Origin: an uncultured Gammaproteobacteria bacterium
GTDB taxonomy: Bacteria; Patescibacteriota; Patescibacteriia; CAIXNZ01
Direction: 5' to 3'
Assembly (NCBI GenBank): GCA_964590345.1
Contig: CAZPVP010000003.1
Coordinates: 3,634-67,633 of the forward strand
DNA: 64,000 bases
The notes below the pieces were generated by a model that ran no database searches, was not told the DNA's origin, and was given only the letters and a program-made list of their open reading frames with translations. The position numbers were made by a program, and so were the translations under genes. Positions within the stretch are counted from its first letter, which is position 1; every line of letters begins with the position of its first letter. This document shows positions 21,082-37,906 of the stretch, piece by piece.

Positions 21082-23094
21082 ATGTTCAAACAAAAGAAAA
21101 ATAATAAAATTTGGATAGTTTTTTGTATTTTTTTAACTTTGTTTTTTGTTGGCAGATCAGCAAGCCCGACTTTAGCCAGTTGGGGATATATGGATAATAT
21201 TACCCAAGGCAGCGAAAATATAACAGATAGTGCCAATAATCATGATGATGCTGTTTTAAGAATTTATAATGATAAGCCCAGATTAGCTTGGATTGATGAA
21301 ACAACAGGTGAAGTTTATTATACGCAATGGTCAGGTTCATCTTGGACTTATGCTGATGGCAGCACCAGTGGTTATGAAAATATTTCTAATTTAGGAGCGG
21401 GTAAAAGCTATAATATGAGAATGGAAATTGATTCTAACGGTTATCCAAGAATAGTTTTTGATGAGGCTGTTTCAAATGATTACATTTATTATATCCAATG
21501 GTCAGGTAGCTCATGGACACATGCTGATGGCTCTACTGCTGGTAAAGAAATAATAGTCAGTGATAAAGATGCTAGTAATGCTTTAGCTTTAGCTTTGGAT
21601 GATAATGACAAGCCGCATGTAGCCTGGAGTTATGAAGTAGTTGATTTTGAAATTTATTATACAAAGTGGAATGGTTCTGGTTGGACATATGCTGATAGTA
21701 CAACAAATGGCTATGAGCAGGTTTCTGATTTGCCGGATACAATTGAACAATATCCTACTTTAAAAATATATAACAATAATCCTCGAATAATCAGTGGTGC
21801 TTTTGACAATGGTTATCAAATACAATATATTCAGTGGTCGGGTAGTTCGTGGACACATGCCGATGGCTCTACTGCTGGCTGGGAAAATATAGCTGATCCT
21901 AATTCTGAATCAAACAGTCCCCAGATGGAATTGGCTTCAAATGGCTATCCAAGGGTTATTTGGGTTGACGCGATAAGCCCTAGTGATTTTGATATATATT
22001 ATTCACAATGGTCAGGATCTGCCTGGACATATGCCGATGGCACTACTACTGGTTATGAAAATGTTCATGATAATGATAAGCTTTCATATTTATCACCGCG
22101 TCAGACCGCAATGGAAGGAAGCAATATTGCACTTGATCAAAATGACAGGCCAATGATTGTTTGGCGTAACGATGCTGATGGCAATTTTGATATATATTTT
22201 ACAAAATGGTCGGGTAGTGCTTGGACAAAAGCTGATGGTACAGCTGGTTATGATAATCTTTCTGATTCAACGACCTTTAATTATATTCCCAGAATTGAGT
22301 TGGATTCAGTTGATAATCCCGTAGTTTCTTGGAGCCACAATGCATCTGGCAATAGCGATATATATTATACGCAATGGACACCGGGGGCTGGCGAGACGGT
22401 TTGTGGATCGGGGATAACAGATTGTTGGACAACAGCAGAAGAGACTGTTTCAGGTGTTGATAATGTTTCAAATAATTCAGGAGATTCAATAATTGATGAC
22501 ATGGCTTTAAATTCAGTCAATGCAGCTTATTTTGTCTGGCATGATGATACTGATGGTAATTACGATATATATTTTAGCAGGTGGCTTTATGATCAAGAAG
22601 ATCAGGTAAATATTACTGCCGATGTAGAACCATCATTAACTTTCAATATCTCTTCAGCTATTTGTAATTTGGGAACATTTTCAGCCTCAACAATCAAAAC
22701 TTGCAATTATTATACTGAAGTGGATACTAATGCCAGCGGTGGTTATATCGCTTATATTAAAGAAGATGGTAATTTACGAAATGCGACAAATAGCATTAAT
22801 GACGTGACTGATAATGAAGTAACGGCAGGCAGTGAGGAATATGGAGTTGCAACCAGTGATTCTGATTATGCTTCATTAGATATAAATCAGCAGGTAACAG
22901 ATTGCGCCAGTTTAGATGGAAGTTCAACAGCCTCTGCATCAACTTTAACAACCAGTGATCAGTTATTTGCTATAGCTAATCAGCCTGTTAGCAGCGATAC
23001 TGTTCATCTCTGTTTCTCTGCAGCTATTTCAGGTGATACACCTGCCGGGGCTTATTCTAATACTGTAACAATAACTGTAATTGGCAATTTTTAG
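21082..23094 (+). CDS. secreted protein with eight ~57-aa WSGSxWT repeats (putative beta-propeller) plus a C-terminal chaperone-usher-pilin-like (SCPU/CsuA/B-like) domain
   Basis: Signal peptide. Repeats YYTQWSGSSWTYADGSTSGYENIS x8, one carrying a Cys-loop insertion. C-terminus VEPSLTFNISSAICNLGTF..TCNYYTEV..GYIAYIKEDGNLRN...TPAGAYSNTVTITVIGNF. Confidence 0.6.
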   Translation: MFKQKKNNKIWIVFCIFLTLFFVGRSASPTLASWGYMDNITQGSENITDSANNHDDAVLRIYNDKPRLAWIDETTGEVYYTQWSGSSWTYADGSTSGYENISNLGAGKSYNMRMEIDSNGYPRIVFDEAVSNDYIYYIQWSGSSWTHADGSTAGKEIIVSDKDASNALALALDDNDKPHVAWSYEVVDFEIYYTKWNGSGWTYADSTTNGYEQVSDLPDTIEQYPTLKIYNNNPRIISGAFDNGYQIQYIQWSGSSWTHADGSTAGWENIADPNSESNSPQMELASNGYPRVIWVDAISPSDFDIYYSQWSGSAWTYADGTTTGYENVHDNDKLSYLSPRQTAMEGSNIALDQNDRPMIVWRNDADGNFDIYFTKWSGSAWTKADGTAGYDNLSDSTTFNYIPRIELDSVDNPVVSWSHNASGNSDIYYTQWTPGAGETVCGSGITDCWTTAEETVSGVDNVSNNSGDSIIDDMALNSVNAAYFVWHDDTDGNYDIYFSRWLYDQEDQVNITADVEPSLTFNISSAICNLGTFSASTIKTCNYYTEVDTNASGGYIAYIKEDGNLRNATNSINDVTDNEVTAGSEEYGVATSDSDYASLDINQQVTDCASLDGSSTASASTLTTSDQLFAIANQPVSSDTVHLCFSAAISGDTPAGAYSNTVTITVIGNF

Positions 23095-23114
23095 ATACCA
23101 AATAAAATATCATT

Positions 23115-24434
23115 TTGATTATGCTTGATTTTTTTTTAAAGCCGAGAGGATCTTTTTATATAATTTTTGTTTTTTTAATATTTTTTTTATTGCCGCAAAA
23201 GTCAGTTGCTTCAAGCTTGCATACTTTAAGCGATAAAATGAGCCGCCATGCGCCGTCTACGCCGGCTGACCATGAAATAAAGTTTACTACGCCAAGCGGG
23301 ATTAATAATTCAGGGGAATATCTAAGGATTATTTTTGACAGCGGCTTTGATTTGTCATCAATACAATATACTGATATTGATTTATACCATGGACCGATAA
23401 CTGGTTTTGAAAAGAGTGAAGTTTTGAGACCGACAGCCGTGGAGACTGCCTGGGGAGTTAATGTCTCCGGTAATCAAATTGATTTTACTCATCCGACAAA
23501 TAATGCAAATGGCGATATTTTAGCTAATGATAAAGTAGTAATTAGGATTGGTTTGAATGCTCAAAATGGACAATATCAAATAATAAATCCAAGTACAACC
23601 GGTTCAAAAATTATAACTTTAAGCGGTAATTACGGCGATTCTGGTAAATTAGCCGTGGCCATTTTTGAAGATCAGCTCGTTGTCGGTGGCCAAACAGAAA
23701 ATTCACCCCCCAATCCTGTTACTTTATATTCGCCGTCAAATATTACCGCTAATTCTATGGTTTTGAGCTGGAGCAAAAATATTGATATTGATTTTGATCG
23801 CTACGAACTTTATATGGCTGAAAATACAGGAGTAACTAATGTCAATGGCTCTTTGGTTTGCCTTAATTCGCTTAATTCAGAAACGTCTTGTATTGTAAGT
23901 TCTTTGACTGGTGATAGGGAGTATTTTTTTGTGCTTTATGTTTATGATACAGAAGGGCTTTATTCTGCCTCAAATGAAGTGATGGCAAAAACGTTAAGTG
24001 TCGGAGGCGGTGCGCCACCACAGCCAGCAATGCCAACGCTTGATGAGCGTCTTTGTCCCATATTTTTGTCAAACACTTTATTGTCAGGAACCAAACCATT
24101 AGGAACAATTATTTTTATTAATGGTTCTGCTGAAGGCATAGATTATCCTACTTTAACAAGTTGGAATTCATTAGTTGATTTGAATTTAGGAAATAATTTG
24201 TTTCTAATTTGGGCGCGTGATAATTATGGCCAAAATAGCGAAGTTTTAAATGCTACGGTTACCCGTTGTGAAGTCGGCGATACAGACTGCAACGGTATTG
24301 TAGATGATTTTGATTTATCTGGATTGGCTTATCATTGGAATACCGCTTGGTGTTACGCTGATTTTAATGAAGATAGTATTGTAGATGATTTTGATTTATC
24401 TGGATTGGCCGCACATTGGGATAAAATATATTAA
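23115..24434 (+). CDS. secreted protein with the shared N-terminal domain of this locus (F.SDFDLS..TDID pattern), an FN3-like domain and a C-terminal dockerin-like duplicated Ca-binding repeat
   Basis: Signal peptide. FN3-like PVTLYSPSNITANSMVLSWS..YELYMAEN. Dockerin-like DTDCNGIVDDFDLSGLAYHW / DFNEDSIVDDFDLSGLAAHW. Confidence 0.55.
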   Translation: MIMLDFFLKPRGSFYIIFVFLIFFLLPQKSVASSLHTLSDKMSRHAPSTPADHEIKFTTPSGINNSGEYLRIIFDSGFDLSSIQYTDIDLYHGPITGFEKSEVLRPTAVETAWGVNVSGNQIDFTHPTNNANGDILANDKVVIRIGLNAQNGQYQIINPSTTGSKIITLSGNYGDSGKLAVAIFEDQLVVGGQTENSPPNPVTLYSPSNITANSMVLSWSKNIDIDFDRYELYMAENTGVTNVNGSLVCLNSLNSETSCIVSSLTGDREYFFVLYVYDTEGLYSASNEVMAKTLSVGGGAPPQPAMPTLDERLCPIFLSNTLLSGTKPLGTIIFINGSAEGIDYPTLTSWNSLVDLNLGNNLFLIWARDNYGQNSEVLNATVTRCEVGDTDCNGIVDDFDLSGLAYHWNTAWCYADFNEDSIVDDFDLSGLAAHWDKIY

Positions 24435-24456
24435 GAAATATAAATATAATTTTAAT

Positions 24457-26682
24457 ATGAAATTTTTAATAAAAGTATTTTTAATTATTTTTTCAGGAAG
24501 TTTGATTTCGCCAATTCTACCAATTCAAGCTGCGGGTGACGCAGTTATGACGTTGAGTTCAATAAAGACTGATTATAATGTTGGAGAGACAGTTTATGTT
24601 GATATTGAGGTTGAGCCAAATGGCGCTTATTTAAATACAGTTAGATCCATTATGGATTTTACTGGCGATGATGTTTTGGTAATAGAGGATTTTAATATTG
24701 GCGATGCATTTCCTTATTTAAGTCCTGATTTTGAATTAAATAATGAAACAAATGATATTAATGTCGGCGGTTTTATTTTGGCTGATTCAGTAAATACAGA
24801 TGCATTATTCGGTACTTTAATTTTTAAAGCTAATTCTGTTGGTTCATCAACAATTAATTTTTTAGATGGCTCGCATTTAATTGATGTTAATCAAGTAGAT
24901 CAAATTAATTTAGCCGGCTGTCAGGGGATTACGATTAATGTAATTGGCGAGCCATTACCTGCACCAACTCCTTCACCAGTTAATCAGCCCCCGGTTTTTC
25001 AGCAGGTTGGTAATAAAAATATAAATTTGGGGGAATCAGTAAATTTTGGCGTTTCTGCCAGTGACCCCGAAGGCGATCCAGTTAATTTAACATGGGAAAT
25101 ACCTGCTGGCGCAAGCTTTAGTAATGTTTTAAATAATGCTGCAGAAGTTGGCGGTGATTTTAGCTGGACACCGGATAAAGAGGGAGTTTATAGCGCGACT
25201 TTTACAGCAGTTGATCCCGAGGATAATATTGCAAATTTAACAGTCAGTATCAGCGTTTCTGTAGAACCTTTACCGCCAAATCATGCCCCGGTTTTTGATC
25301 CTGTTTCAGAAAAGACAGTTAATGCTGGCGAAATTTTAACTTTTAATGTTACAGCTACTGATCCCGATGGCGATAATGTGAGTTTGAAATTAGCTGAATT
25401 AGAAAATGCTGCTTTTAATATAATAACCAGCGGACCGACTTCAACCGGGCGTTTTTCCTGGCAGCCGAAAACTTATGGCATTTATTATGCCTTGTTTGAA
25501 GCAACCGATGATCATCCAGAAAATCCTTTGACTAAAAATTTGCCGGTTAGGATTACTGTTTTTGGCGGTGAATGCCCGCCTTGCGGAGGAGGTGATTGTC
25601 CGATCTGCCAGTGTGAAAAGGAAACCGAAGAATTGCCTGTAATTACAGAGAAAGAACCACCAGTTATAAGTTCACCCAGCCATTCTAATCAAGATAAATG
25701 GTATGCGAAAAATAAGCCGCAATTTAGCTGGCAGGTTGATGATCCTGGCTTGGGTTACCATTTCAATTTGGATGAAAAGCCTTTTACCGATCCGGATTAT
25801 GCCTATTTTTACAGCCAGGAAAACTTTTTTTCATTTACTGAGGTAGCAGACGGCTTTTGGTATTTTCATTTGAAAGTTAAATATGCTGATGGCTGGGGGC
25901 CGGTTTCTCATTATCAGGTGAAAATTGATACTACACCGCCCGAATTTTTTAGGCCGAGTATTGAGCAAAATCAGTTATATTTTTCCAGTTTGGACAAGCA
26001 TTCGGGCGTGGCTTATTATGAAATGAAAATAGGGGAAAATCCTTGGCAAAAAGTCATTAGTCCTTTAAATTTAGATGAATTACCTGAATATAGCTCCCAA
26101 TTAATTTTACGTGCTGTTGATAAAGCCGGTAATGCTATAGAAAGTTATATTGATTTGGATAAAAAAGAAGTTGTGGTAGAAAAAGAGCAAAAAAAATATA
26201 TTGTGGAAGAATTTGCTGAGATAATTGAGCCGCCGGTTATTGAAAACGTTAGCTTTGAACGGCTTCGCGATAAATTAATAGTAGAAGATTATTTGATTGT
26301 TTCTGGACGGGCCATACCAAATTCGTTGGTAACAGTTCATTTATCTACAAAACCCGAAACAGTTTTTTATGCCCAAGCCGATAAAAATGGTAATTGGCAG
26401 GCTAAGCTTAAAAAAGAATTAGCAGCTAAAAAATATAATTTGTATGCTACAGCGACAATTGATGATCTGATTTCTTTGCCGTCGGAAAAAGTTTATTTTT
26501 CATTAGTGGAAAAATTTATGCCAAAAGAAGAAGTTAAATTACCCTTTTGGCTTATTGGTTTAATTGCAATTTTAATTATTTTGGTGATTATTTTGTTGAT
26601 GAAAAATATTTCATTGAGAAAGAAATTGGGCAAATTTCAGTCTATGCTGAAAAAATCAAAAGATAAATTATGGAAAAAATAA
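24457..26682 (+). CDS. membrane-anchored surface protein with an N-terminal cohesin-like domain, tandem cadherin/He_PIG-like Ig repeats, a Cys-rich linker, an Ig-like domain and a C-terminal TM anchor
   Basis: Signal peptide MKFLIKVFLIIFSGSLISPILPIQA (start moved to 24457). Cohesin-like AAGDAVMTLSSIKTDYNVGETVYVDIEV...LFGTLIFKANSVGSSTINF. Ig repeats NQPPVFQQVGNKNINLGE..ASDPEGDPVNLTW and NHAPVFDPVSEKTVNAGE..ATDPDGDNVSL. CPPCGGGDCPICQC. TM anchor FWLIGLIAILIILVIILLM. Confidence 0.55.
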   Translation: MKFLIKVFLIIFSGSLISPILPIQAAGDAVMTLSSIKTDYNVGETVYVDIEVEPNGAYLNTVRSIMDFTGDDVLVIEDFNIGDAFPYLSPDFELNNETNDINVGGFILADSVNTDALFGTLIFKANSVGSSTINFLDGSHLIDVNQVDQINLAGCQGITINVIGEPLPAPTPSPVNQPPVFQQVGNKNINLGESVNFGVSASDPEGDPVNLTWEIPAGASFSNVLNNAAEVGGDFSWTPDKEGVYSATFTAVDPEDNIANLTVSISVSVEPLPPNHAPVFDPVSEKTVNAGEILTFNVTATDPDGDNVSLKLAELENAAFNIITSGPTSTGRFSWQPKTYGIYYALFEATDDHPENPLTKNLPVRITVFGGECPPCGGGDCPICQCEKETEELPVITEKEPPVISSPSHSNQDKWYAKNKPQFSWQVDDPGLGYHFNLDEKPFTDPDYAYFYSQENFFSFTEVADGFWYFHLKVKYADGWGPVSHYQVKIDTTPPEFFRPSIEQNQLYFSSLDKHSGVAYYEMKIGENPWQKVISPLNLDELPEYSSQLILRAVDKAGNAIESYIDLDKKEVVVEKEQKKYIVEEFAEIIEPPVIENVSFERLRDKLIVEDYLIVSGRAIPNSLVTVHLSTKPETVFYAQADKNGNWQAKLKKELAAKKYNLYATATIDDLISLPSEKVYFSLVEKFMPKEEVKLPFWLIGLIAILIILVIILLMKNISLRKKLGKFQSMLKKSKDKLWKK

Positions 26683-27371
26683 TTAAAATTATTTTATTGG
26701 CAGCTATTTTAGCAGTCGCCAAAGAGGCTTTTGCCAGCATGACTAGTGATAATTATAATGTTTGGATTGATAATTTGAGCGCTGGTGGCGGGCGAGTAGA
26801 ATCAACTACTTATAAAATAGATTCCAATTTTAGCAGCCAGACAGGTGATGTGGGGCAAAGTACTAATTTTCAGGAAAAAATTGGTTTTTCCCCTATTGAA
26901 GATGAGCCGACGGTTGGTTTTAATATTGCTTCAGTTACTTTGAATTTTGGAGAGCTTTCCTCAAATTCAACAGCTTATTCAAGTCATACTTTTGCTGCTT
27001 ATACAAATTCCAATGCCGGTTATAGCATTAAGGTTTATGGGCAACCGTTAAATACGGATGATTATACCTTAACAGCAATTGGTAGCACTCCCCAAAGTTC
27101 TGAGGTGGGCACTGAACAATTTGGCATGAATTTAGTTGCTAATACCTTGCCTTTGGTTGGTCAAGATCCTTCTGGCGGTGTTGGTCAAGCAGCAAGCAAT
27201 TATGATTCAGAAAACCAATTTGCTTACAATGAGGGCGATGTGGTTGCCGAAGCCGACAGTTTTTCTTATCAGACAGATTATACTGCTTCAATCATTGTTA
27301 ATATATCTGGCGAGACTCCGTCCGGAGTTTATGATACGATATTAACTTATGAATTTATTCCGGTTTTTTGA
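26670..27371 (+). CDS. small secreted pilin-like subunit with a divergent SCPU/CsuA/B-like C-terminal module
   Basis: Signal peptide. C-terminus LNFGEL...YSIKVYG...TPSGVYDTILTYEFIPVF (an alternating hydrophobic terminal strand like its paralogues). Confidence 0.45.
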   Translation: MEKIIKIILLAAILAVAKEAFASMTSDNYNVWIDNLSAGGGRVESTTYKIDSNFSSQTGDVGQSTNFQEKIGFSPIEDEPTVGFNIASVTLNFGELSSNSTAYSSHTFAAYTNSNAGYSIKVYGQPLNTDDYTLTAIGSTPQSSEVGTEQFGMNLVANTLPLVGQDPSGGVGQAASNYDSENQFAYNEGDVVAEADSFSYQTDYTASIIVNISGETPSGVYDTILTYEFIPVF

Positions 27372-27574: not shown

Positions 27575-28615
27575 ATGCCTATGAAAAAAAGATTAAAGCT
27601 TTTTTCAACTGCGGGGATAATTTTATTGGTTGTTTCTTTCGCATTAGTCGCATTAAATTCAGCATTGGCAACAGGTATGAGCAATGTTTCTGTTACGCAG
27701 ACAACTTATGCTGCAAGCACTGCAGTAGCAACTACCACCATTGTTTTTGATCCAGAAACCGAGGTCAATTCCAATGATGGTATTTTAATTACTTTTGAAT
27801 CTGATTATGACATTTCCAGTGTGGTTGATGATGATGTCGCAGTCTCACAGACTAATAGTGGTGTAGATATTACAAAAGGAACAGCAGCTGTGAGTGGTCA
27901 GGATTTGCAAATTCCGATTACTACAGAAGGTGATACTCCCGCGGGACAAATTACTGTGACTATTTCAAATAGTCATATTACTAACCCGACTTCCAGTGGC
28001 ACTTATACTGTCACTATCAAAACTTATGATTTAGGTGATGACAATGCTTTTGGCGGTGCTGATGCTAATGCTGATACTTTGGAAGATACTGGTGCAGCAG
28101 CTGTAATTATTGGCACAAATCAAGTGACAATTTCAGGTACAGTTGATCCGAGCTTAAGTTTGTCTTTGTCAGGTACAAGTTGTGCTTTGGGGACATTAAG
28201 TTCTGCAAACATTCAAACTTGCCAGTATGATTCAACAGTTAGTACAAATGCCAGTTCAGGTTATACAGCCTATATTAAAGAAGATGGCAATTTAAGGAAT
28301 GCAAGTAATGATATCGATGATGTGGCTGATAGTACTACTGATGCTGGTTCAGAAGAATACGGCCTAAGTACAAGTGAATCTGATACAGTTGATATAACAG
28401 CGACCAATTCTTCTGCGACTTGTACTACAAATGATGACGGTACAACACCTACAAATGCCCAGGCATTAACTACTAGTGACCAATCATTTGCAACACAATC
28501 TGCGCCTGTGGATTCTGATGTGGTAACTTTATGCCATTCAGCTTCAATTTCCGGCACAACACCGGCTGGCGCTTATTCTCATACAGTGACAGTTACTGTT
28601 GTTGGTAACTTTTAA
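27575..28615 (+). CDS. secreted two-domain protein: shared N-terminal domain plus SCPU/CsuA/B-like C-terminal module
   Basis: Signal peptide. C-terminus VDPSLSLSLSGTSCALGTL..TCQYDSTVSTNASSGYTAYIKEDGNLRN...TPAGAYSHTVTVTVVGNF. Confidence 0.6.
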   Translation: MPMKKRLKLFSTAGIILLVVSFALVALNSALATGMSNVSVTQTTYAASTAVATTTIVFDPETEVNSNDGILITFESDYDISSVVDDDVAVSQTNSGVDITKGTAAVSGQDLQIPITTEGDTPAGQITVTISNSHITNPTSSGTYTVTIKTYDLGDDNAFGGADANADTLEDTGAAAVIIGTNQVTISGTVDPSLSLSLSGTSCALGTLSSANIQTCQYDSTVSTNASSGYTAYIKEDGNLRNASNDIDDVADSTTDAGSEEYGLSTSESDTVDITATNSSATCTTNDDGTTPTNAQALTTSDQSFATQSAPVDSDVVTLCHSASISGTTPAGAYSHTVTVTVVGNF

Positions 28616-29725: not shown

Positions 29726-29736
29726 GCGTATTAAAG

Positions 29737-30138
29737 ATGACAAAGTCAATAATTAAAGGGAAAGAAAGATTATTAATAGTAATAATTTTAATTATTGCTC
29801 TTAATTTTATTTTATTATCTATTGGTTATGGTCAAACAAACGTCAATATACGGGCTTATGTTCCTGAGACAGAAGAAAATAAGAGATTTTCCAATAATCA
29901 AATTAAACAAGAAAAACCGACTACTAAGGAAAATAAATACCAGTATTTTTTTGAAAAATTTTGGCTGACCCAAACTGATAAAGAAACTAATGCAATAGAG
30001 CAAGAAGAAGTGCAGACAATCCACGACAAGATAGTTAGCCATTTTTTTATGTGGTTAATTTTGTTTGTTATTGCCATAATCAGCTTTTTTGTCTTGCGAA
30101 TAATTGATCATTATATAATAAGCATTTTTCGGTCATGA
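29737..30138 (+). CDS. small membrane protein with two TM helices, translationally coupled (ATGA overlap) to the next pilin-like gene
   Basis: Hydrophobic segments LLIVIILIIALNFILL and FFMWLILFVIAIISFFVL. Confidence 0.45.
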   Translation: MTKSIIKGKERLLIVIILIIALNFILLSIGYGQTNVNIRAYVPETEENKRFSNNQIKQEKPTTKENKYQYFFEKFWLTQTDKETNAIEQEEVQTIHDKIVSHFFMWLILFVIAIISFFVLRIIDHYIISIFRS

Positions 30139-31169
30139 AAAAAGCGTTATCATATTTAATTATTATTTTATTGCTGGCAATTTTAGTTTATTTTTTGATT
30201 CATACTGTCAGAGCCGGCTTGGTAAGTAATTTTAGTGATGAATTAAGCAGTCAGGTTATTGCTTCAGCAGCTAATCACACAATTTTATTTACAACAGCTT
30301 CTAATTTTGGGCCAGATGAAACGATAGAATTGTTCTTTGAATCAGATTTTGATTTGAGCTTAATTGATTATACTGATATTGATTTTAAAGATGATGATGT
30401 TGATTTAAATTTAGGTGACAGCCCAGGAACTGGTAGTGGCAGTAATATTGGAGTTAGTGTTAGTGGACAGACAATAATTTTTACTCAGAATGATGCTGAT
30501 ACTGTTTTGGCTGGTTCAGAGATTACGATTGCTATTGGCTTAAATACTGATTATCAAACTCAAGGCGATCAGCAAATTTATAATCCAAGTATTGCTGATA
30601 CTTATAAAATAAGTTTGTCAGGCTCTTTTGGGGACATGGGCACAATTTCAGTGGTTATTTTGGAAAGCGATTCAGTTTCTTTACAGGCAGAAGTTAATCC
30701 AGAATTAAGCTTTGCCATTAGAAATAGCGATGATACTGATTATGCTAATAATTGTAACTTGGGTACAATTACTGATTTTGCTGTTAGCCATTGTTCATAT
30801 CGTTTAGCGGCTGAAACCAATGCTTATAATGGTTTTCAGGTTTATATTCAGGCTGATGGCAATTTCCGTAATCAATCTGGTTTTATATCTAATATTAGCG
30901 AAAACAGCCAGGTAGAGCAAGGGGAAGAAGGTTATGGTCTTGCTGTTGCTGCTGGTGATAATATTATTGAAGAAGGGGATTTTAATGATGATGATACGCC
31001 GATTCCAACAGAAGATACACTTTTAATTAAGTCAAATTCAGTGTATAATTATATAGAAGGGGATTTGTCCACTTCTTCATTAATAACCCACAAAGCTTGT
31101 GTTTCATCAACAACAAAAGCAGGGGTTTATAGTCAGCAAATAACTTATTCAATTTTGGCTAATTATTAA
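30135..31169 (+). CDS. secreted two-domain protein: shared N-terminal domain plus a divergent SCPU/CsuA/B-like C-terminal module
   Basis: N-terminus FFESDFDLSLIDYTDID. C-terminus NPELSFAIRN..NCNLGTI..HCSYRLAAETNAYNGFQVYIQADGNFRN...TKAGVYSQQITYSILANY. Confidence 0.55.
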   Translation: MKKALSYLIIILLLAILVYFLIHTVRAGLVSNFSDELSSQVIASAANHTILFTTASNFGPDETIELFFESDFDLSLIDYTDIDFKDDDVDLNLGDSPGTGSGSNIGVSVSGQTIIFTQNDADTVLAGSEITIAIGLNTDYQTQGDQQIYNPSIADTYKISLSGSFGDMGTISVVILESDSVSLQAEVNPELSFAIRNSDDTDYANNCNLGTITDFAVSHCSYRLAAETNAYNGFQVYIQADGNFRNQSGFISNISENSQVEQGEEGYGLAVAAGDNIIEEGDFNDDDTPIPTEDTLLIKSNSVYNYIEGDLSTSSLITHKACVSSTTKAGVYSQQITYSILANY

Positions 31170-31196: not shown

Positions 31197-32285
31197 ATGA
31201 AAAAACAAAAAATAATATTTGTTTTTACATCAATAATAGTGTTAACTTTGATGTTGGCAATATTATTGAATCCCAGCATTTCTAAAGCTGGAAACTGGCT
31301 TTTTGATCCTGAACCGGCTCCTGCCAGTTCAAGTATTACTTTGTGTATTGGCGCTAAAGCCCCTAATGACGGTTGGAGCGCTGATGATTATCTTGATATG
31401 GTTTTTCCTTCAGAATTTGATTTAACAGGCCTTACGATTAGTGATACCAGCGGCAGTTCAGAAATAGAACTTTATTCAAATGCAAATGACTGTACTGGGA
31501 CAGCCAGAATTGCTGAAGCGACAGCTACAGCTGATAATGATCGTGACTATATGGAAATTTCAGGCCAACAGCATAGAATTATTTTGGAAGATGCAATAGC
31601 AGCAGATACGCCTTTTAGCGTAAAATATGTAGCTAAATCCGGCGATTCAATTGTTACGCCAAGCGCTGGTAAATATTTGCTTAAAGCTGATTGGGGGCCA
31701 AGTAGCACTTTTATTCCTGTTAAAAATGATGCTGATTTTATTTATGTAGGCGATTCAATGCCTGATCAGGTAGAGATATCAGCCAGCGTGGATCCCAGCT
31801 TAACTTTAAGCGTATCTTCAAGTTCATGTAATTTGGGAACATTTTCTGCAACTAATATCCAGACGTGCAATTATTATACTGAAGTAAGCACTAATGCCAG
31901 TTCAGGCTATACAGCTTATATAAAAGACGACGGGGATTTGTCAAGCGGAAGTGATACTATAGCTGATGTGACTGGCGGATCAGTTTCTTACGGCACGGCT
32001 GCTTATGGTATTTCTACGACAGAAGATGAAAGCGTTGATATTTTACAGATCCAGGATGCTGATTCTGATCTAGATTATGACGGAGATGATTGTAGCACTT
32101 TAGATGATGGTACTACATCAGCAAATGCTTCGGCTGTAACAACCAGTGATCAGTCATTTGCCACTTCAACTGGAGCTATTAGTGCTGATAGTATTTATTT
32201 GTGCCATGCCGCAGCTATATCAGGCTCAACACCTGCCGGCGCTTATTCAAACACAATAACCATTACGGCAGTCGGTAATTTTTAA
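31197..32285 (+). CDS. secreted two-domain protein: shared N-terminal domain plus SCPU/CsuA/B-like C-terminal module
   Basis: C-terminus VDPSLTLSVSSSSCNLGTF..TCNYYTEVSTNASSGYTAYIKDDGDL...TPAGAYSNTITITAVGNF. Confidence 0.6.
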   Translation: MKKQKIIFVFTSIIVLTLMLAILLNPSISKAGNWLFDPEPAPASSSITLCIGAKAPNDGWSADDYLDMVFPSEFDLTGLTISDTSGSSEIELYSNANDCTGTARIAEATATADNDRDYMEISGQQHRIILEDAIAADTPFSVKYVAKSGDSIVTPSAGKYLLKADWGPSSTFIPVKNDADFIYVGDSMPDQVEISASVDPSLTLSVSSSSCNLGTFSATNIQTCNYYTEVSTNASSGYTAYIKDDGDLSSGSDTIADVTGGSVSYGTAAYGISTTEDESVDILQIQDADSDLDYDGDDCSTLDDGTTSANASAVTTSDQSFATSTGAISADSIYLCHAAAISGSTPAGAYSNTITITAVGNF

Positions 32286-32377: not shown

Positions 32378-34423
32378 TTGGTAATTTTAATATTCAATTT
32401 AATGAAGATATATTCTTTTAAAAAATTTTTTTATAAAAAAATAATTTTTAGTATTGTTGTCCTTTTTTTTATTTTTGCTTTTGCTGGTACAGTTTATGCT
32501 TTTTGGGGGCATATGGATACAAAAGATACTGGCTATGAGATTTTACACAATAATAGTGTTGATGAGCTGAAAATTAAGGTTGAAATTTATGATGACAAGC
32601 CCAAGTTGGTTTGGCAGACTGATCTGGGAGCGCAGTATTGGGGCGATATTTATTATACTCAATGGTCAGGTACTGAGTGGACAAAGGCTGACGGCACGTC
32701 CGGCTATGATAATTTGACGGTTTCATCCGGAGGAAATCATGACGAGCCATATATTGAGCTTGATTCAGCTGGTAATCCGAAAATTATATTTAGAGATAAA
32801 AACTTGGGGAAAATTATTTATACACAATGGTCGCCAAATGCTTGCGGCGGAAGCGGCTGCTGGACAAAGGCGGACGGCACAACTTCATCGCCAAGCTATG
32901 ATACTATTGGCGTTTCTGATGCTGTTTTGGATTTTGCTCTGGATAGCAATGATAACCCCCATATTATTTGGCGTTATAATGACGGAGGAGGAATGGATGT
33001 CTATTATACCAAATGGAATGGTTCCAACTGGACTTATGCTGACGGCACAACTCTTGGTGAAGAAAAGATTGATTTGAATGGCGGAGCGATTATTTGCCAT
33101 ATTGAAATTTATAATGACAAGCCGATAATTATTACTGATGACAGTATTACTGGCAATTCTGAAATTCAATATATACAATGGTCAGGTTCAGCTTGGACAA
33201 ATGCTGATGGGATAACGGTTGGTTGGGAGAATATATCTAATACTGCCACTAATTCAGCCAGATCAAGATTTAAAATTGACAGCTTGGGCAATATAAAAGT
33301 GGTTTGGACAGAGGAAACCGCTAGTGATAATGAAATTTATTACACGCAATGGACAGTGAGTCATAATGACTGGACCAAAGCAGACGGGATAACCTCAGGC
33401 TGGGAAAATGTTTCTGATAATTCCGGTGATTCAAGTATTTACGGTATAAATACAATTATGCTTGATAATAATGATAATCCGGGATTGGTTTGGTTGGATG
33501 ACACAAGCGGCAATAGCAATCTCTATTATTCGCAATACGTTTCAGGTACAGGCTGGACAAAAGCGGATGGTTCAACATTAGGCTGTGATAATGTTTCAGA
33601 TAGTTCGGGGGATAAGAAACTTGTTAGGATGGCTTTTGATTCTACTAATAATCCTAATATTGTTTGGGGTGATGATTTTAGCGGTAATTATGAGGTATAT
33701 TTTAGTCAATATGTAGATTCGGTCGGCTGGACAGAAGCTGACAAAACAACAGTAGGTAAGGAAAATATATCAAATACTTCAGGTACATCTTCGGTTCAGA
33801 GTATATTATTAAATTCAATTAATGAGCCCCATGTCTTTTGGTATGATGATACGGATGGCGATGATGATGTTTATTTTTCACGCTGGACAGAAACCAATAT
33901 TGGACAGGTAAATATAACCGCTGATGTTGAGCCTTCATTGAGTTTGACTTTACCAGGTGGTCAGACAGCTAATTTAGGATATTTTTCCTCCCAAAGTTTG
34001 CAAACGGCTGTTTATCAAAGTGTTATTAGCACAAACGGTTCTTTGGGCTATACTGCTTATATTAAAGATGACGGCGATTTGAGAAATGAAACCAATTCCG
34101 TTAGCGATACCAGCGGTACAATCAGTTATGGCGATGAATCTTATGGTGTTGTGACAACAGAAGGAGATACAGTTGATATAACTAAAATTATTGATACAAA
34201 TAACGATGAACAATATAATTCAACAGACTGCACTTTATTGGATGGTGAGGCGACCTCACTTAGCGCAACAGCGCTGACCAGTGGTTTGCAGTCATTTGCC
34301 AAATCAAATGGTCCTGTCAGCGATGACAATGTCTATTTATGTTTTATAGTGGCAATCTCTGGCTCAACCCCTGCCGGTGCTTATTCAAGCACTGCAACAA
34401 TTACTGTGGTTGGTAATTTTTAA
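32378..34423 (+). CDS. secreted protein with eight WSGSxWT-type repeats plus an SCPU/CsuA/B-like C-terminal module (first Cys pair lost), paralogue of the 21082 gene
   Basis: Repeats IYYTQWSGTEWTKADGTSGYDN..., one with a CGGSGCWT insertion. C-terminus VEPSLSLTLPGG..GYTAYIKDDGDLRN...TPAGAYSSTATITVVGNF. Confidence 0.6.
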   Translation: MVILIFNLMKIYSFKKFFYKKIIFSIVVLFFIFAFAGTVYAFWGHMDTKDTGYEILHNNSVDELKIKVEIYDDKPKLVWQTDLGAQYWGDIYYTQWSGTEWTKADGTSGYDNLTVSSGGNHDEPYIELDSAGNPKIIFRDKNLGKIIYTQWSPNACGGSGCWTKADGTTSSPSYDTIGVSDAVLDFALDSNDNPHIIWRYNDGGGMDVYYTKWNGSNWTYADGTTLGEEKIDLNGGAIICHIEIYNDKPIIITDDSITGNSEIQYIQWSGSAWTNADGITVGWENISNTATNSARSRFKIDSLGNIKVVWTEETASDNEIYYTQWTVSHNDWTKADGITSGWENVSDNSGDSSIYGINTIMLDNNDNPGLVWLDDTSGNSNLYYSQYVSGTGWTKADGSTLGCDNVSDSSGDKKLVRMAFDSTNNPNIVWGDDFSGNYEVYFSQYVDSVGWTEADKTTVGKENISNTSGTSSVQSILLNSINEPHVFWYDDTDGDDDVYFSRWTETNIGQVNITADVEPSLSLTLPGGQTANLGYFSSQSLQTAVYQSVISTNGSLGYTAYIKDDGDLRNETNSVSDTSGTISYGDESYGVVTTEGDTVDITKIIDTNNDEQYNSTDCTLLDGEATSLSATALTSGLQSFAKSNGPVSDDNVYLCFIVAISGSTPAGAYSSTATITVVGNF

Positions 34424-34429
34424 TAAGTT

Positions 34430-37400
34430 ATGTTTTTTAAATTTAAAAAATTAAAAAAATTAATAAAGTTTTATTATTCAAAGCTTGGCAAGCCGCTGAA
34501 GATTTTTTTAGTGGCTTTAGTAATTGGTATTCAATTGGCTTTATTGATTAGTTATTGCTATTCAATTTATAAAAACAAGATATTTGCCGGTGAGGGGATT
34601 AGGGATACTTTAACTTACCAAGGTAAAATTACTAATGCTGATGGCGTGCCGCCGCCTGATGGTCAGTATAATATGCGTTTTAAAATTTATGACCAGGCCA
34701 CTAACGGTACATTGTTGTGGACAGAAATTTGGGATAGCACAAATCAGGGAGTAGCTGGTAGCAAAGTAACTGTGACCGAAGGCGTTTTTAATGTTGAATT
34801 AAATTCCTTATGCGGCAATTGGGTAGGTGACTGCGCTTCAAATGGCGGCGTTACTTTTGCCCAAGACAGCTTTTATTTACAAGTTGAATTGGATTATGAC
34901 GGCAATGGCACTTATGAGGAAATTTTTACTCCCAGAAAAAGATTTACTGCCACGCCTTATTCAATGAATACTGATAAGCTTGATGGTTATGATTCAGGTG
35001 ATTTTGTTTTAAAATCAGGCAGTGAAATGACTGGTTCGCTGACTGCGCCTCAATTTATTGACAGTTCGCTTTTGGCTTATTATCAGTTTAATGGTGATGC
35101 TGATGATAGCAGTGCTAATACTTTAGACGGGATATTACAAAATAGCGCTGATGTGAGCAATGATGTTTTAGAACTGGACGGTGTAGACCAGTATGTTTCC
35201 GTTAGTGACGATGATTTGTTAAGTTTTGGCAATGGCACGGTTGATTCGGCTTTTACTGTTTCGGGCTGGATTAAGATGACTGACGCGACTAATTTTAATA
35301 TTATTTCCAAAGGTATATATAATACTGATGGCGAATATTTATTTTATATTGATAATACTGATAAAATTAGGATCCGTCTTAATGATGAAAGCGTGACGGA
35401 TTGCTACATCGGCCGTTTGTATGACACGGCTTTAACTGATTATGAAGGCAGCTGGATTAATTTGGCGGCAACTTATGACGGCAGTGGCGCGTCTTCAGGC
35501 TTGAAAATCTATTTAAACGGTAACCAAGTTGATAATGCTAATAATGAAAGCAATTATAGTTCTTATGTGGCTATGGAAAATTTGACTAGTAATTTATATA
35601 TAGGCAAATATGCCAGCACTTACAGTAAAGGCAAAATTGATGATTTAAAATTATATAATCGTGAATTAAGCGCCGATGAAATTAAAAGGCTGTTTGAAAG
35701 TGAAGCAAGGAGTCAGCTACACTCTAATAAAATTACAACTAAAGATGTTTATTTTGAAAAAAACGAAGAAGGTGAAACAGAAGGCGGTTATTTAACTTGG
35801 GATAATATTAATAATCGCTTCAAATTTAGCTCCGAGTTATATTCGCCAAATAGCCTGCCTTATTTTAATAACAGTATTGGCGATCGTGATTATGCTTATT
35901 TGGCTGATGATAATAAAGTTTTAGCTTATGATTTTCATGAGTCAGTTGGCGCAACCGTGTCAGATTTGGAAGGTAATTCTAACGGCACATTAAACGGTGA
36001 TGCTGACTGGACGAATCTTGGCTATATAGGCTATGGCTTAAAATTTGATGATGATTCTGATTATATTTCTTTTGCCGATCCCGGCTTATCTTCAACTCAA
36101 GGAACAGTAGAAATGTGGGTTAAATTAAATGATGTAACAACCTCTGATACAAATTATTTATTAAGAATGTGGTCAGGAGCTTCCAATGAAATTGCTATAT
36201 ATAAGCAAAATGCCGCTGATTTATATGTGGAAGCAGGGGATAGCAGCGCTATTGATACGGGCTGGGATTTCCCTGATACCAGCTGGCATCACATTGTTTT
36301 GAGCTGGGATTCAACAGCTATTGACGTTTATGTTGACAGTGTTGATTTGAGTTTAACCGATACTTATACAAGTCTAGACGTTAGTTTGTTCTCCAATTTT
36401 TATTTGGGTTCTGATTCAGCAGCCAGTACAGCCTTAAATGGCATTATGGACAGCGTGGCGCTTTATGACGATGTTTTGACTGCGACTGAAATAGCCAATC
36501 ATTATAATGCCGCTTTTAACAATCTTTATCTTATTAATAATTTAAACGACGGCAATATCAGCGCAACTTTGGCAGATTTTTACAGCTTTTCAGCTACGGT
36601 TAACGGACGGCGGGAGAAAAAAGATCCTGTTTATTATAATGACGATACCCGGACTTTGGCCCTTGGTTTTTCAGAAGGTTATGGCTCAAGCACCGCCAGT
36701 CAAGTTAATTCATTGAGTGCCGGTATTAATGGTGCCAGCTGGACTAGGCAGGGTTATTATGGTTATGGCCTGGAGTTTGACGGCAGTGATGATTATTTGT
36801 TAGTAGAAGATAATGATTATATTGATATTGACACTGAAGATTTTTCAATTGAGTTTTGGGTTAAAGGCGATGATAACATTAGCCAATCTGGCAACAGAAT
36901 TTTGGAAAAAGTTAGCGGTTCAACCGGATTTAGAGTTTATTATACTACTGATGACAGAATAACTTTTGCTATTGGCGATGGCACTAATTCGGTTGCTGGC
37001 TCGCCAAGCTCAGGTGGAGACATGTCAAAGGGCCAATGGGAGCATATGATTTTGACTTTTGACAGAGATGGTGATGCTACGATTTATAATGATGGCAATG
37101 AAGTTTACTCTGTAGATATTTCAAGCGTTACTGGCAGTTTGAGCAATGACTCTGATTTATATATTGGCAAAGATGCCAGCGGTAATTTATTTAAAGGAAA
37201 ATTAGACAGCATTATTATTTATAAAAATCAATTGTTAAATTCTTTTGACGGTTACAGTCGATCAACTAATAGTCAGGAATTTTTTATTAATAATACGAGA
37301 ACAGCCTCAACTGGCCAAGCTGCACTTGGAGGTATAAATCAAAGTTCTGGGGGCTGGGGCGGTGTTTTTTATATTGCTAATACTGATAATACAAGCGGTT

Positions 37401-37906
37401 ATCCTTTAAGCGTATGGAATGAGGCTTCTTATACTTCTGGCTCTGATACCGTTTATAACTTAATAAGTTTTATGTATCAGGCTGGTCAGTCATCATTTGG
37501 CAATTTAATCTGGGACAGTACAAATTCGCAGTTTGTTTTTGACCAAAGCATAAAAACCAATGGAGATTTAACTGCTGATTATATAAAAACAGTGGGGAGT
37601 GATACAAGCGATAATGAATTTTTAGCCCATGATGTTATCAGGCATACGCTTACTTCAACCGATATAACTAACAGGTATTTTACAGAAGCCTGGAGCAAGG
37701 CAACCACCAAAAAAGTTGTTAATATTCATACAGTTACTGTTGACGAAAGTGATGCCAATGATAAGCTGACTACAGATGATTGGACAAATTCTGGCGCAAC
37801 TGACAATGGTTCGGCTTATGACGGAACTAATATTACAATTACGGATCAAAACAATGCCTGGGAAGAAAACGATATTGTTACTATTTATATTGTTTATGAA
37901 AAATAA
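34430..37906 (+). CDS. 1158-aa N-terminally membrane-anchored protein with three LamG/concanavalin-A-like lectin domains
   Basis: N-terminal TM FLVALVIGIQLALLISYCYSIY. Three repeats of the LamG pattern (DGxDQYVSV..FTVSGWIK..YIGK..GKIDDLKLYNRELSADEI, with similar blocks at about aa 500-690 and 750-930). Confidence 0.6.
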   Translation: MFFKFKKLKKLIKFYYSKLGKPLKIFLVALVIGIQLALLISYCYSIYKNKIFAGEGIRDTLTYQGKITNADGVPPPDGQYNMRFKIYDQATNGTLLWTEIWDSTNQGVAGSKVTVTEGVFNVELNSLCGNWVGDCASNGGVTFAQDSFYLQVELDYDGNGTYEEIFTPRKRFTATPYSMNTDKLDGYDSGDFVLKSGSEMTGSLTAPQFIDSSLLAYYQFNGDADDSSANTLDGILQNSADVSNDVLELDGVDQYVSVSDDDLLSFGNGTVDSAFTVSGWIKMTDATNFNIISKGIYNTDGEYLFYIDNTDKIRIRLNDESVTDCYIGRLYDTALTDYEGSWINLAATYDGSGASSGLKIYLNGNQVDNANNESNYSSYVAMENLTSNLYIGKYASTYSKGKIDDLKLYNRELSADEIKRLFESEARSQLHSNKITTKDVYFEKNEEGETEGGYLTWDNINNRFKFSSELYSPNSLPYFNNSIGDRDYAYLADDNKVLAYDFHESVGATVSDLEGNSNGTLNGDADWTNLGYIGYGLKFDDDSDYISFADPGLSSTQGTVEMWVKLNDVTTSDTNYLLRMWSGASNEIAIYKQNAADLYVEAGDSSAIDTGWDFPDTSWHHIVLSWDSTAIDVYVDSVDLSLTDTYTSLDVSLFSNFYLGSDSAASTALNGIMDSVALYDDVLTATEIANHYNAAFNNLYLINNLNDGNISATLADFYSFSATVNGRREKKDPVYYNDDTRTLALGFSEGYGSSTASQVNSLSAGINGASWTRQGYYGYGLEFDGSDDYLLVEDNDYIDIDTEDFSIEFWVKGDDNISQSGNRILEKVSGSTGFRVYYTTDDRITFAIGDGTNSVAGSPSSGGDMSKGQWEHMILTFDRDGDATIYNDGNEVYSVDISSVTGSLSNDSDLYIGKDASGNLFKGKLDSIIIYKNQLLNSFDGYSRSTNSQEFFINNTRTASTGQAALGGINQSSGGWGGVFYIANTDNTSGYPLSVWNEASYTSGSDTVYNLISFMYQAGQSSFGNLIWDSTNSQFVFDQSIKTNGDLTADYIKTVGSDTSDNEFLAHDVIRHTLTSTDITNRYFTEAWSKATTKKVVNIHTVTVDESDANDKLTTDDWTNSGATDNGSAYDGTNITITDQNNAWEENDIVTIYIVYEK

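Follow-up and report, generated by a model that had tools for sequence, protein, structure and literature searches.

The 64,000-nucleotide window analysed here carries a 17-kb gene cluster that is a divergent copy of the already described Pam system and, in that sense, a rediscovery. In this CPR bacterium of the Parcubacteria group, the cluster probably specifies a Pam-type pilus, with an assembly by strand exchange that is deduced from homologues. Pam pili are known from Candidatus Mycosynbacter amalyticus (Saccharimonadia), for which cryo-EM of PamA and PamB filaments showed the inter-domain linker as a donated strand, inserted into a C-terminal domain (CTD) that carries paired cysteines (Troman et al., bioRxiv 10.64898/2026.03.03.709456, 2026 preprint). 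According to the same preprint (10.64898/2026.03.03.709456), the system has no usher; its parts include a PamT tip, chaperones of PapD/FimC-like type that carry a membrane helix, and the terminator PamR, an RbmA-like double FnIII protein whose donor strand is N-terminal and whose membrane helix is C-terminal. The preprint also mentions a 'tail fibre-like' gene near the Pam locus. A preliminary description of our DNA had allowed that its protein family might prove to be already described; it is, because the Pam system is known and NCBIfam holds models for it (NF058579 and NF058581).

Like the Pam loci, the cluster encodes two-domain pilins, in which an Ig-like N-terminal domain (NTD) is joined by a linker to an Ig-like, probably truncated CTD that has paired cysteines, a single-domain PamT-like protein (26670; proteins are named by their first position in Table 1), a PapD-like chaperone anchored by a C-terminal helix, and a large lectin-like or tail-fibre-like neighbour. 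Signal peptides on all components, the lack of an usher and the CPR host are shared as well. The locus differs in its lineage, which is neither Saccharimonadia nor Microgenomatia, in having one chaperone gene instead of PamC plus PamD, and in its terminator, which combines an NTD and linker with fn3 and a dockerin-like module in place of the two FnIII domains and helix of PamR. Eight-repeat propeller-like domains replace the Ig-like NTD in two subunits, 21082 and 32378. The window has no ATP synthase genes near the locus, and only the PamT-like 26670 passes an NCBIfam cut-off. The likeness to Pam was drawn from the NCBIfam models and the preprint's descriptions, with no Pam entry among the matches of PDB sequence and fold searches.

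Gene cluster and its conservation

The + strand carries all 11 ORFs of the locus, at the coordinates given in the preliminary description (Table 1); among them are six genes that share a C-terminal module, and the chaperone candidate 28658. The whole gene order is preserved in the related loci L001, L003 and L005-L008. Contig ends cut 13 of the 78 related loci, leaving 65 evaluable, and in 59 of these (59/78 overall) the chaperone gene is directly preceded by a pilin gene, scored as a gene with a pilin CTD ending <1.5 kb upstream. All relatives are labelled as CPR or other monoderm-type lineages, the closest as Buchanan-, Falkow- and Uhrbacteria. A CPR-type, single-membrane host, as previously suspected from the window, is supported and agrees with what the preprint reports for homologous Pam proteins, and the absence of an usher was confirmed by a Pfam search in which no Usher family matched any of the eleven locus proteins.

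Table 1. Features of the locus, with positions in the window and profile matches (CTD and NTD denote our family HMMs)
Feature	Positions	Strand	Length (aa)	Composition and remarks	Profile matches (E)
Donor-plus-acceptor subunit	21082..23094	+	670	Signal peptide, eight ~57-aa repeats, linker, Pam-type CTD	CTD 5e-57; NF058581 3.7e-11 (43.3 bits)
Donor-only subunit	23115..24434	+	439	Pilin NTD, linker-like strand, fn3, type-I dockerin-like pair	NTD 1e-29; fn3 8.3e-8
Membrane-anchored multi-Ig protein	24457..26682	+		ORF opens at 24385; likely start is internal Met 24457
PamT-like acceptor-only subunit	26670..27371	+	233	CTD without canonical linker	NF058579 1.6e-47; NF058581 1.1e-39
Two-domain pilin	27575..28615	+	346	Ig-like NTD, linker, CTD with two Cys pairs	NF058581 3.8e-13
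Candidate donor (linker) strand of 27575	28118..28144	+		Residues 182-190, QVTISGTVD
Membrane-anchored PapD-like/WxLIP-like chaperone	28658..29641	+	327	Signal peptide, two Ig-like domains, C-terminal helix
Candidate complementing strand of chaperone	29042..29122	+		Residues 129-155
Small protein with two hydrophobic segments	29737..30138	+		ORF opens at 29707
Divergent two-domain pilin	30135..31169	+	344		NTD 1e-32; CTD 5e-38; NF058581 1.8e-6
Two-domain pilin	31197..32285	+	362		NTD 2e-34; CTD 2e-60; NF058581 6.7e-11
Second donor-plus-acceptor subunit	32378..34423	+	681	Eight-repeat propeller-like N-domain; likely start Met 32402	CTD 7e-46; NF058581 9.6e-6
Large LamG protein	34430..37906	+	1158	N-terminal hydrophobic segment, three LamG/concanavalin-like domains, no Pam CTD	Laminin_G_3 3.4e-63, three stretches

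Shared module and subunit classes

The module that had been noticed at the C-terminus of six proteins was recovered by a family HMM in exactly those six window ORFs (E 5e-14 to 2e-71), at the extreme C-terminus in every case. In an alignment of the six copies, which spans about 160 columns, 14 positions are invariant. The CTDs of 21082, 27575, 31197 and 32378 share 52-57% mutual identity; identity with that of 21082 is 26-29% for the CTDs of 26670 and 30135. The 'C.LGT...TC.Y' cysteine pair, first taken as common to the module, occurs in four of the six proteins and is missing from 26670 and 32378; a second pair is also found in four. Likewise, the terminal strand, T..G.Y....T.....[FY]-end, proved conserved but not invariant in the six-module alignment. 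At E<=1e-3, the family of the module comprises 1365 representatives out of 1.84 billion proteins, so that it is not a chance pattern; its members range from 150 to 3217 aa and have very diverse N-terminal parts, with the module always at the C-terminal end.

All six modules match NF058581, 'Pam pilus system pilin subunit' (CPR_Pam_pilin_C), with E-values of 1.1e-39 to 9.6e-6. At 135.9 bits, 26670 alone clears the curated cut-off of 55; the other five fall below it at 49.8, 43.3, 42.5, 28.1 and 25.8 bits (E 3.8e-13 to 9.6e-6). The earlier assignment to spore-coat-protein-U/CsuA/B pilins found no counterpart, as neither SCPU (PF05229) nor a Fimbrial family matched. An N-terminal domain shared by four proteins, as described, is present in 23115, 27575, 30135 and 31197 (NTD HMM E 1e-29 to 2e-67), but these do not all bear the module: 23115 stands outside the six because it has the NTD and lacks the CTD.

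The AF2 model of the 27575 pilin (pLDDT 93.5) comprises two β domains with an unpaired linker between them. The NTD strands end at residue 179 and those of the CTD begin at 194, leaving residues 180-193 unpaired; within this stretch, residues 182-190 form a coil between NTD strand 168-179 and CTD strand 194-198, with a dip in pLDDT in the monomer model. Three linker residues, V184, V190 and P192, rank with the best-conserved columns when the family is aligned. By analogy with the Pam filaments, this linker would be the donated strand, and 27575, with cysteines at 203/216 and 283/320, is a candidate major subunit. In 21082, the HMM alignment places the linker at 'QVNITADV', between the CTD (residues 509-670) and a β-propeller-like set of repeats, the starts of which lie at residues 79-497 and are spaced 56-69 residues apart; the N-domain of 32378 is 41% identical to that of 21082.

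Residues 7-233 of 26670 align end-to-end with 9-241 of the 241 positions of the PamT model NF058579, at 162 bits against an equivalog cut-off of 240. Neither 26670 nor 13 homologues align to the seven linker positions of the CTD HMM, and 26670 is predicted from its sequence to be a tip or initiator. The reverse arrangement is seen in 23115, in which the CTD HMM found no CTD; its linker-like strand, 'DQLVVGG', is kept in homologues, and no membrane helix occurs beyond residue 100. HMM alignments thus split the subunits into an acceptor-only protein (26670), five donor-plus-acceptor proteins and a donor-only protein (23115), and by this reading of the sequences the locus encodes all three classes that a polar strand-exchange polymer needs.

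At its C-terminus, 23115 resembles the dockerins of cellulosomes in ending with a duplicated Ca-loop module. A profile of 10 such tails matches PDB dockerins 4fl4_A (3.7e-6), 2vn6_B (4e-6) and 1daq_A (1.6e-5), and Pfam Dockerin_1 (PF00404) matches 10/10 tails, the best at 2.2e-4 and the window tail at 0.018, under the gathering score. The resemblance ends where no cohesin was identified and where the role would be pilus anchoring instead of enzyme assembly. Donor-only homologues of other lineages carry either dockerin-like tails or membrane helices. No PamR-type protein (RbmA-like double FnIII, N-terminal donor strand, C-terminal helix) is present in the locus, and 23115 is predicted to act as chain terminator and anchoring adaptor, an analogue of PamR by function and not a homologue by architecture.

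The putative membrane-anchored chaperone

The 28658 protein comprises an N-terminal signal-like helix and two β-sandwich domains and ends with a membrane helix (residues 288-321), which supports the PapD-like fold and membrane anchor first ascribed to it and agrees with the PapD/FimC-like, membrane-anchored chaperones PamC/PamD. The fold is PapD-like, in a protein that is anchored and not soluble; the expected PapD_N match was not obtained, with neither PF00345 nor PF02753 matching any of 75 chaperone-family members. Curated models, NCBIfam among those searched, gave no match to 28658. By hhalign, the chaperone reached 8% against FimC/YadV and 2.4% against EcpB, in a test of low power whose positive control, FimC/YadV against EcpB, also failed.

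The likeness to DUF916/WxL clusters noted in the preliminary description was correct: homology of the chaperone to WxLIP/DUF916 is well supported by profile comparison, and WxLIP is both its best structural match and its closest sequence relative. The protein corresponds to the WxLIP type, defined by a DUF916 N-domain (PF06030), DUF3324 and a membrane helix, with DUF3324 not detected by sequence. In the chaperone model, pLDDT falls below 50 only at residues 136-143, and these are followed by strand 146-155 with alternating hydrophobics. WxLIP has a loop without structure in the monomer model that would, by prediction, turn into a strand and complete the WxL sandwich; by this analogy, residues 129-155 are a candidate complementing strand.

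Proposed assembly and alternative readings

All components would be exported by Sec, for which we see N-terminal hydrophobic signal-like segments. Once exported, a subunit would be held by chaperone 28658 through a strand inserted into the incomplete Ig-like CTD. Polymerisation would then proceed at the membrane by donor-strand exchange, the 'QVTISGTV'-type linker of the incoming subunit displacing the chaperone strand in the CTD of the previous one, as in the homologues resolved by cryo-EM. The fibre would start with the PamT-like acceptor-only 26670, which would become the tip; 27575, probably with 30135 and 31197, would form the shaft, and 21082 and 32378 would be shaft-compatible subunits displaying propeller-like domains that are likely binding modules. 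Growth would end with 23115, because it could plug the last CTD and yet offers none itself. Through the dockerin-like end of 23115, the fibre would be attached to a partner on the cell, for which the adjacent 24457-26682 protein is the candidate. No usher would be needed because there is no outer membrane. In this scheme, we infer the identity of the donor strand, the subunit order and strand insertion. The subunit classes are read cleanly from the sequence, and the polarity model is therefore testable.

In the WxL/Csc clusters of Firmicutes, WxLIP (DUF916-DUF3324-TM) is encoded together with WxL proteins of small and large size (Hassan et al. 2023, PMC10599100; PDB 9i1y and 9i25). They share with our locus the two Ig-like domains and C-terminal membrane helix of the homologous chaperone and the gene order: directly upstream of the WxLIP-type gene lies one for a small protein that consists of the module alone, and large proteins carry the module at their extreme C-terminus. 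On this layout, and on the predicted completion of the WxL sandwich by a WxLIP strand, each module protein could be held singly and non-covalently at the cell surface by strand complementation from the WxLIP-like anchor, with Ig-like or propeller N-domains as payload and no polymer. The WxLIP authors proposed a stable partner of WxL proteins and not an assembly chaperone, which would count against a chaperone role of 28658. WxL proteins are, in addition, thought to be singly displayed on peptidoglycan and not polymerised. We regard such a display as unlikely here, given that the modules match a Pam pilin model whose founding members form filaments and that the conserved linker and the donor-only and acceptor-only classes suit a polymer and not one-to-one display. 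As previously noted, WxL motifs are absent: the C-terminal WxL domain PF13731, with its two W-x-L motifs, had no Pfam match, and hhalign of the CTD against 12 WxL domains gave 0.4-0.8% with only the last strand aligned. An LPXTG protein, too, is absent here.

That the cluster instead encodes unrelated, paralogous secreted adhesins with an envelope-binding module, 28658 being an independent Ig-like membrane protein without strand exchange, is very unlikely: diverse N-terminal parts ahead of a strictly C-terminal module would suit such proteins, and generic fold searches mostly return Ig-like adhesins, but pilin and chaperone genes are tightly adjacent across CPR, 28658 has a chaperone-type fold and the modules match the Pam model.

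The chaperone-usher-like logic of the subunits that was first proposed is supported, as it is by the preprint for homologous proteins: Ig-like subunits would have an incomplete fold, with tip, shaft and terminator and growth from the base. The differences from the chaperone-usher pili of Gram-negative bacteria, which comprise Fim/Pap and the archaic Csu/CupE with SCPU subunits, lie in the missing usher and outer membrane, the anchored chaperone and the extra N-terminal domain of the subunits. In chaperone-usher subunits, the donor strand is an N-terminal extension; the candidate here is an internal, inter-domain linker. Membership in the SCPU family is largely refuted and that in the PapD family finds no sequence support: neither the window proteins nor 62 and 75 family members gave a Pfam match to SCPU, PapD_N, PapD_C or Usher. 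An archaic chaperone-usher (Csu/SCPU) system with its usher lost or encoded elsewhere can be all but dismissed, since beyond a similar-looking C-terminal 'G.Y..T.T....F' strand it is opposed by these searches, by the chaperone's anchor, by the internal donor candidate, by the monoderm-type labels of all relatives and by non-significant hhalign comparisons, of low power, with Fim/Yad pilins, FimC, YadV and EcpB.

Within the favoured reading as a Pam-type pilus, the locus extends the Pam system to the Parcubacteria group and shows its modularity, with a single chaperone, subunits bearing large propeller-like domains and a terminator helix exchanged for a dockerin. CPR bacteria depend on host-cell contact, and Pam pili are among the few molecularly known CPR surface filaments beside type IV pili. 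Homology to WxLIP ties this newly described CPR organelle to WxL clusters found in enterococci, listeriae and lactobacilli, for which WxL papers leave the mechanism open, and suggests experiments in tractable organisms. We speculate, tentatively, that Pam pili and WxL/Csc are two branches of one ancient system of single-membrane bacteria. The shared system may be usher-free, with a WxLIP/PamC-type anchor that completes incomplete C-terminal Ig-like modules and hands them over. Strand exchange may then also serve assembly in WxL clusters, the WxL domain being a divergent acceptor module, or, alternatively, the Pam 'chaperones' may double as permanent anchors. In the present lineage, moreover, the pilus base would be tethered by a dockerin-cohesin-type contact and not by a membrane helix.

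Other proteins of the locus

The 24457-26682 protein comprises an N-terminal, β-rich conserved domain of ~140 aa followed by Big_9/PKD, OmpL47-type and Big_13 domains (Pfam, NCBIfam); at its C-terminus, residues 715-737 of the long ORF form a membrane helix. The protein is kept at the equivalent place in L001, L003 and L005-L008 and is a candidate receptor for the 23115 dockerin; cohesin tests of its N-domain were negative or uninformative. The small 29737 protein, with hydrophobic segments at residues 18-36 and 107-125 of its long ORF, adjoins the chaperone downstream in L001-L008 as well. Lastly, 34430 is a conserved last gene: it closes the locus in L002, L003, L007 and L008, with weaker conservation in loci of the Saccharimonadia type. 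Its product is a probable surface adhesin and may correspond to the 'tail fibre-like' neighbour of the preprint.

Locus layout and probable identity as a Pam system

The 21082-37906 locus contains 11 co-directional ORFs (named here by their start positions), in which neighbours overlap by up to 13 bp or are separated by up to 203 bp; G+C content is 36% vs 33.5% for the window. Each product starts with a hydrophobic segment resembling a signal peptide, and those of 28658 and of the 24385 ORF carry a C-terminal membrane helix. Antisense ORFs at 28270-28557, 32885-33178 and 32739-33077 were taken as spurious. A scan for promoters and terminators gave counts close to the shuffled expectation; at 27400-27427, shortly upstream of 27575, the gene for the candidate major pilin, the cluster's single long intergenic gap (203 bp) contains a sigma-70-like site whose -10 is of the extended type (TTTAAA, 16 nt, TG, TATAAT).

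The C-terminal domains (CTDs, ~160 residues) of 21082, 26670, 27575, 30135, 31197 and 32378 are alignable, with 14 invariant columns; four are mutually 52-57% identical, and those of 26670 and 30135 share 26-29% identity with that of 21082. An HMM for which 62 relatives supplied their C-terminal parts matched exactly these six among the window ORFs (E 5e-14 to 2e-71), with the module always reaching the stop codon, which bears out the six-gene module of the preliminary description. Its details fared less evenly. The Cys pair given as a feature of the module is present in four of the six proteins and absent from two, with a second pair likewise in four, and the terminal strand called invariant is, in the six-module alignment, conserved but not invariant. 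The shared N-terminal 'F.SDFDLS' domain does occur in four proteins (23115, 27575, 30135, 31197), of which 23115 is without the C-module. Among 1.84 billion proteins, the module profile matched 1365 representatives, 464 of them at E<=1e-10; in nearly all of the best 150 of the 1365 matches, the module sits at the C-terminal end, in proteins of 115 to 3217 aa. Sortase-type pili were ruled out, as the modules form the very C-terminus ('...GNF') and have neither an LPXTG motif nor a membrane helix.

By searches against NCBIfam release 20, we found homology to two relevant models. NF058581, 'Pam pilus system pilin subunit', matches all six modules, 26670 at 135.9 bits against a cut-off of 55 and the other five at 26-50 bits, under the cut-off (E 3.8e-13 to 9.6e-6). 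In addition, 26670 gives an end-to-end match to NF058579 ('CPR-type pilus protein PamT') at E 1.6e-47, with 162 bits falling below the equivalog cut-off of 240. NCBIfam matched no Pam chaperone model in the chaperone family or in Saccharimonadia-type chaperones and pilins. The source of both models is a preprint (bioRxiv 10.64898/2026.03.03.709456) on Pam, a system without an usher, whose pilins PamA and PamB were identified in filaments of Ca. Mycosynbacter amalyticus, a parasite belonging to the Saccharimonadia, by cryo-EM. In that work, the pilin C-terminal domain is the acceptor for a linker contributed by the adjacent subunit. The operon additionally encodes PamE and a single-domain tip protein without a linker, PamT; PamC and PamD are PapD/FimC-like with a C-terminal membrane helix, and PamR, which combines an N-terminal strand with two FnIII domains and a membrane helix, is the proposed terminator and anchor.

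Given the match to these models and their preprint, the preliminary description, which proposed SCPU/CsuA/B-like pilins and a PapD-like chaperone, had rediscovered the Pam system from sequence alone. The kind of system is already known (preprint March to June 2026, NCBIfam models June 2026), and the locus is a divergent Pam member from a CPR group other than the described one. It differs from Pam in that PamT-like 26670 alone among its proteins passes a curated threshold, and its terminator architecture differs from PamR. By Pfam, no SCPU, Fimbrial, PapD, Usher or WxL family was found in the locus proteins, the 62 pilin relatives or 75 chaperone relatives; this speaks against the proposed SCPU membership and agrees with the proposed absence of an usher. 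Nothing relevant came up when PDB sequences were searched with 27575, with 28658 or with the pilin profile.

Chaperone, subunit classes and terminator

The AlphaFold2 model of 28658 (75 homologues, pLDDT 88.7) comprises a signal helix, two β-sandwich domains and a helix at 288-321, the sole disordered stretch being residues 136-143, followed by a strand with alternating hydrophobic residues. Its structural matches (scores in brackets) include EcpB (12.2), CsuC (12.2), CfaA (12.1), FimC (11.6), SafB (11.5), YadV (11.1), CupB2 (10.8) and PapD (9.9), each alignment spanning 148-184 residues and hence covering both chaperone domains, in agreement with the PapD-like strand pattern initially recognized; the helix at 288-321 corresponds to the membrane anchor noted with it. 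Profile alignments by hhalign of the chaperone with FimC, YadV and EcpB, and of the CTD with Fim and Yad pilins, were not significant, a weak test, as the positive control failed too. Some chaperone relatives, ~545 aa long, carry LytR_C (PF13399), a chaperone-like ectodomain fused to a cell-envelope module.

The model of 27575 (62 homologues, pLDDT 93.5) has two β domains, between which residues 180-193 (NQVTISGTVDPS) are unpaired, with a dip in confidence. Residues V184, V190 and P192 rank among the best-conserved columns of the family, which agrees with the highly conserved donated linker of Pam pilins (10.64898/2026.03.03.709456). Foldseek comparison of the pilin model with the PDB gave generic two-Ig matches only (TM ~0.2).

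HMM alignments separate three subunit classes. In the acceptor-only class (26670 and 13 homologues), the C-domain alignment starts at 'EPTVGF...' and seven linker positions are absent. Donor-plus-acceptor subunits comprise 27575, 30135 and 31197, with an Ig-like N-domain, and 21082 and 32378, in which eight ~57-aa repeats (regions 41% identical between the two) replace the N-domain and lead into the linker 'QVNITADV', after which comes the C-domain. The donor-only class, 23115 with its homologues, retains the N-domain and a linker-like 'DQ[VI]xVxG', followed by fn3 (E 8.3e-8 in 23115) and no C-domain. We infer that the chaperone would complement subunits with a strand, that strands would be exchanged between subunits, and that these would be ordered from tip through shaft to terminator; the propeller-like and LamG domains would have a binding role.

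23115 ends in a dockerin-like pair, DTDCNGIVDDFDL / DFNEDSIVDDFDL. Combined into a profile, ten donor-only tails matched solved dockerins in the PDB at 3.7e-6, 4e-6 and 1.6e-5, and Pfam Dockerin_1 was found in 10 of 10 tails (best 2.2e-4; 0.018 for 23115 itself). Among related loci in other genomes, the module is kept in L001, L003 and L005-L008; the donor-only protein has a different dockerin-like tail in L013, L017 and L018 and is 1200 aa long with a membrane helix in L021, L025 and L028. Classes and tails together form the pattern required by a polymer that is polar, built by strand exchange and tethered at its base. The gene next to 23115, at 24457-26682, has a multi-Ig product whose N-terminal domain is conserved and which carries a membrane helix at its C-terminus. 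We speculate that this domain is a cohesin that might pair with the dockerin, a reading that gained no support from a PDB profile search, from Pfam or from hhalign comparison with CipA cohesins. A homologue search for the domain returned no matches.

Features of the locus and its products
Feature	Coordinates	Strand	Remarks
Dockerin-like duplicated Ca-loop module (type I)	24279-24431	+	C-terminus of the donor-only 23115 product
Conserved ~140-aa β-rich domain	24526-24951	+	N-terminal domain (tip) of the membrane-anchored 24457-26682 product; cohesin-like by eye
Small protein with two hydrophobic segments	29737-30138	+	Directly downstream of the chaperone gene; conserved in the eight closest loci

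Homology of the chaperone to WxL-interacting proteins

By five lines of evidence, the chaperone family is homologous to the WxL-interacting protein (WxLIP) of Firmicutes, in line with the likeness to WxL/DUF916 clusters noted at the outset. Pfam PF06030 (WxLIP_PGBD, formerly DUF916) is found in 41 of 75 family members (best E 2.2e-7). EfmWxLIP1 is both the best structural match of the 28658 model and the top, marginal match of the family profile among PDB sequences (E 0.037). With eight Firmicute WxL clusters taken from plasmids as the comparison set, hhalign aligned the CPR chaperone family with WxLIP at 98.3% (E 2e-14, 267 columns), at 96.8% (E 2.2e-10) after trimming of the signal peptide and membrane helix, and at 96.6% for domain 1 alone; column-shuffled, reversed and unrelated Ig-like controls reached <=0.5%.

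Gene order is also common to Pam-type and WxL clusters: a small module-only protein lies directly upstream of the WxLIP gene, and large proteins with a C-terminal module adjoin it. The subunit CTD and the WxL domain, in contrast, are alike only in the last strand ('AG.Y..T.T' vs 'a..Y..TLTW'); hhalign was not significant in local or global mode, whether the profiles were thin or enlarged, nor for a PamT-like subset. An AlphaFold prediction has an unstructured WxLIP loop become a strand that completes the WxL sandwich (Hassan et al. 2023, PMC10599100). That paper makes no mention of chaperones or PapD, and the Pam preprint (10.64898/2026.03.03.709456) makes none of WxL or DUF916 in main text or supplement; neither contains the chaperone-WxLIP homology or a dockerin-bearing terminator.

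Distribution, synteny and other genes of the window

In a 5.8-billion-protein set, we found 229 chaperone relatives, the closest 65-84% identical; among the closest, the named ones come from Buchanan-, Uhr- and Parcubacteria, and the NCBI taxonomy puts Buchananbacteria within the Parcubacteria group of Patescibacteria. Pilin relatives extend the range to Falkow- and Woykebacteria. Scanning GTDB with one genome for each species yielded 78 loci, including Uhr-, Falkow-, Buchanan-, Kerfeld-, Parcubacteria and Moranii-, Shapiro-, Levyi- and Roizmanbacteria, Saccharibacteria at 22-33% identity, and some MAGs implausibly labelled 'Gammaproteobacteria' or 'Bdellovibrionales'. The first chaperone gene is preceded by a C-domain ORF ending <1.5 kb away in 59 of 65 evaluable loci (13 being interrupted by a contig end), and the number of chaperone paralogues per locus is one in 35, two in 32 and three in 11. 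Gene order is kept throughout in the six closest, in which the small membrane protein with two segments again follows the chaperone and the LamG protein comes last. The former showed a weak T7SS EssA match (E 0.002), which is probably compositional.

The pilin-chaperone pair was also found on contigs labelled Ca. Humimicrobiaceae (Actinomycetota) and Limnocylindrales (Chloroflexota). Pam-like systems may not be exclusive to CPR, or these contigs may be mis-binned. The Humimicrobiaceae-labelled contigs are 47-359 kb long; in the loci concerned (L080/L081, 5633-8927; L054, 2-2759), C-module ORFs lie directly upstream of the Pam-like chaperone gene.

Elsewhere in the window, the product of 737-2743 is a type IV coupling protein resembling TrwB/VirD4; it has a treble-clef zinc finger and is possibly part of a Patescibacteria conjugation-type T4SS. 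FG-GAP repeats and a YkuD L,D-transpeptidase domain are joined in one protein at 60117-61538 (- strand), near an M23 peptidase gene at 55717-56952. Lastly, 15466-16536 encodes a CrtC-like lipocalin protein (CrtC N-terminal domain and Lipocalin_9), unusual for a reduced CPR genome.
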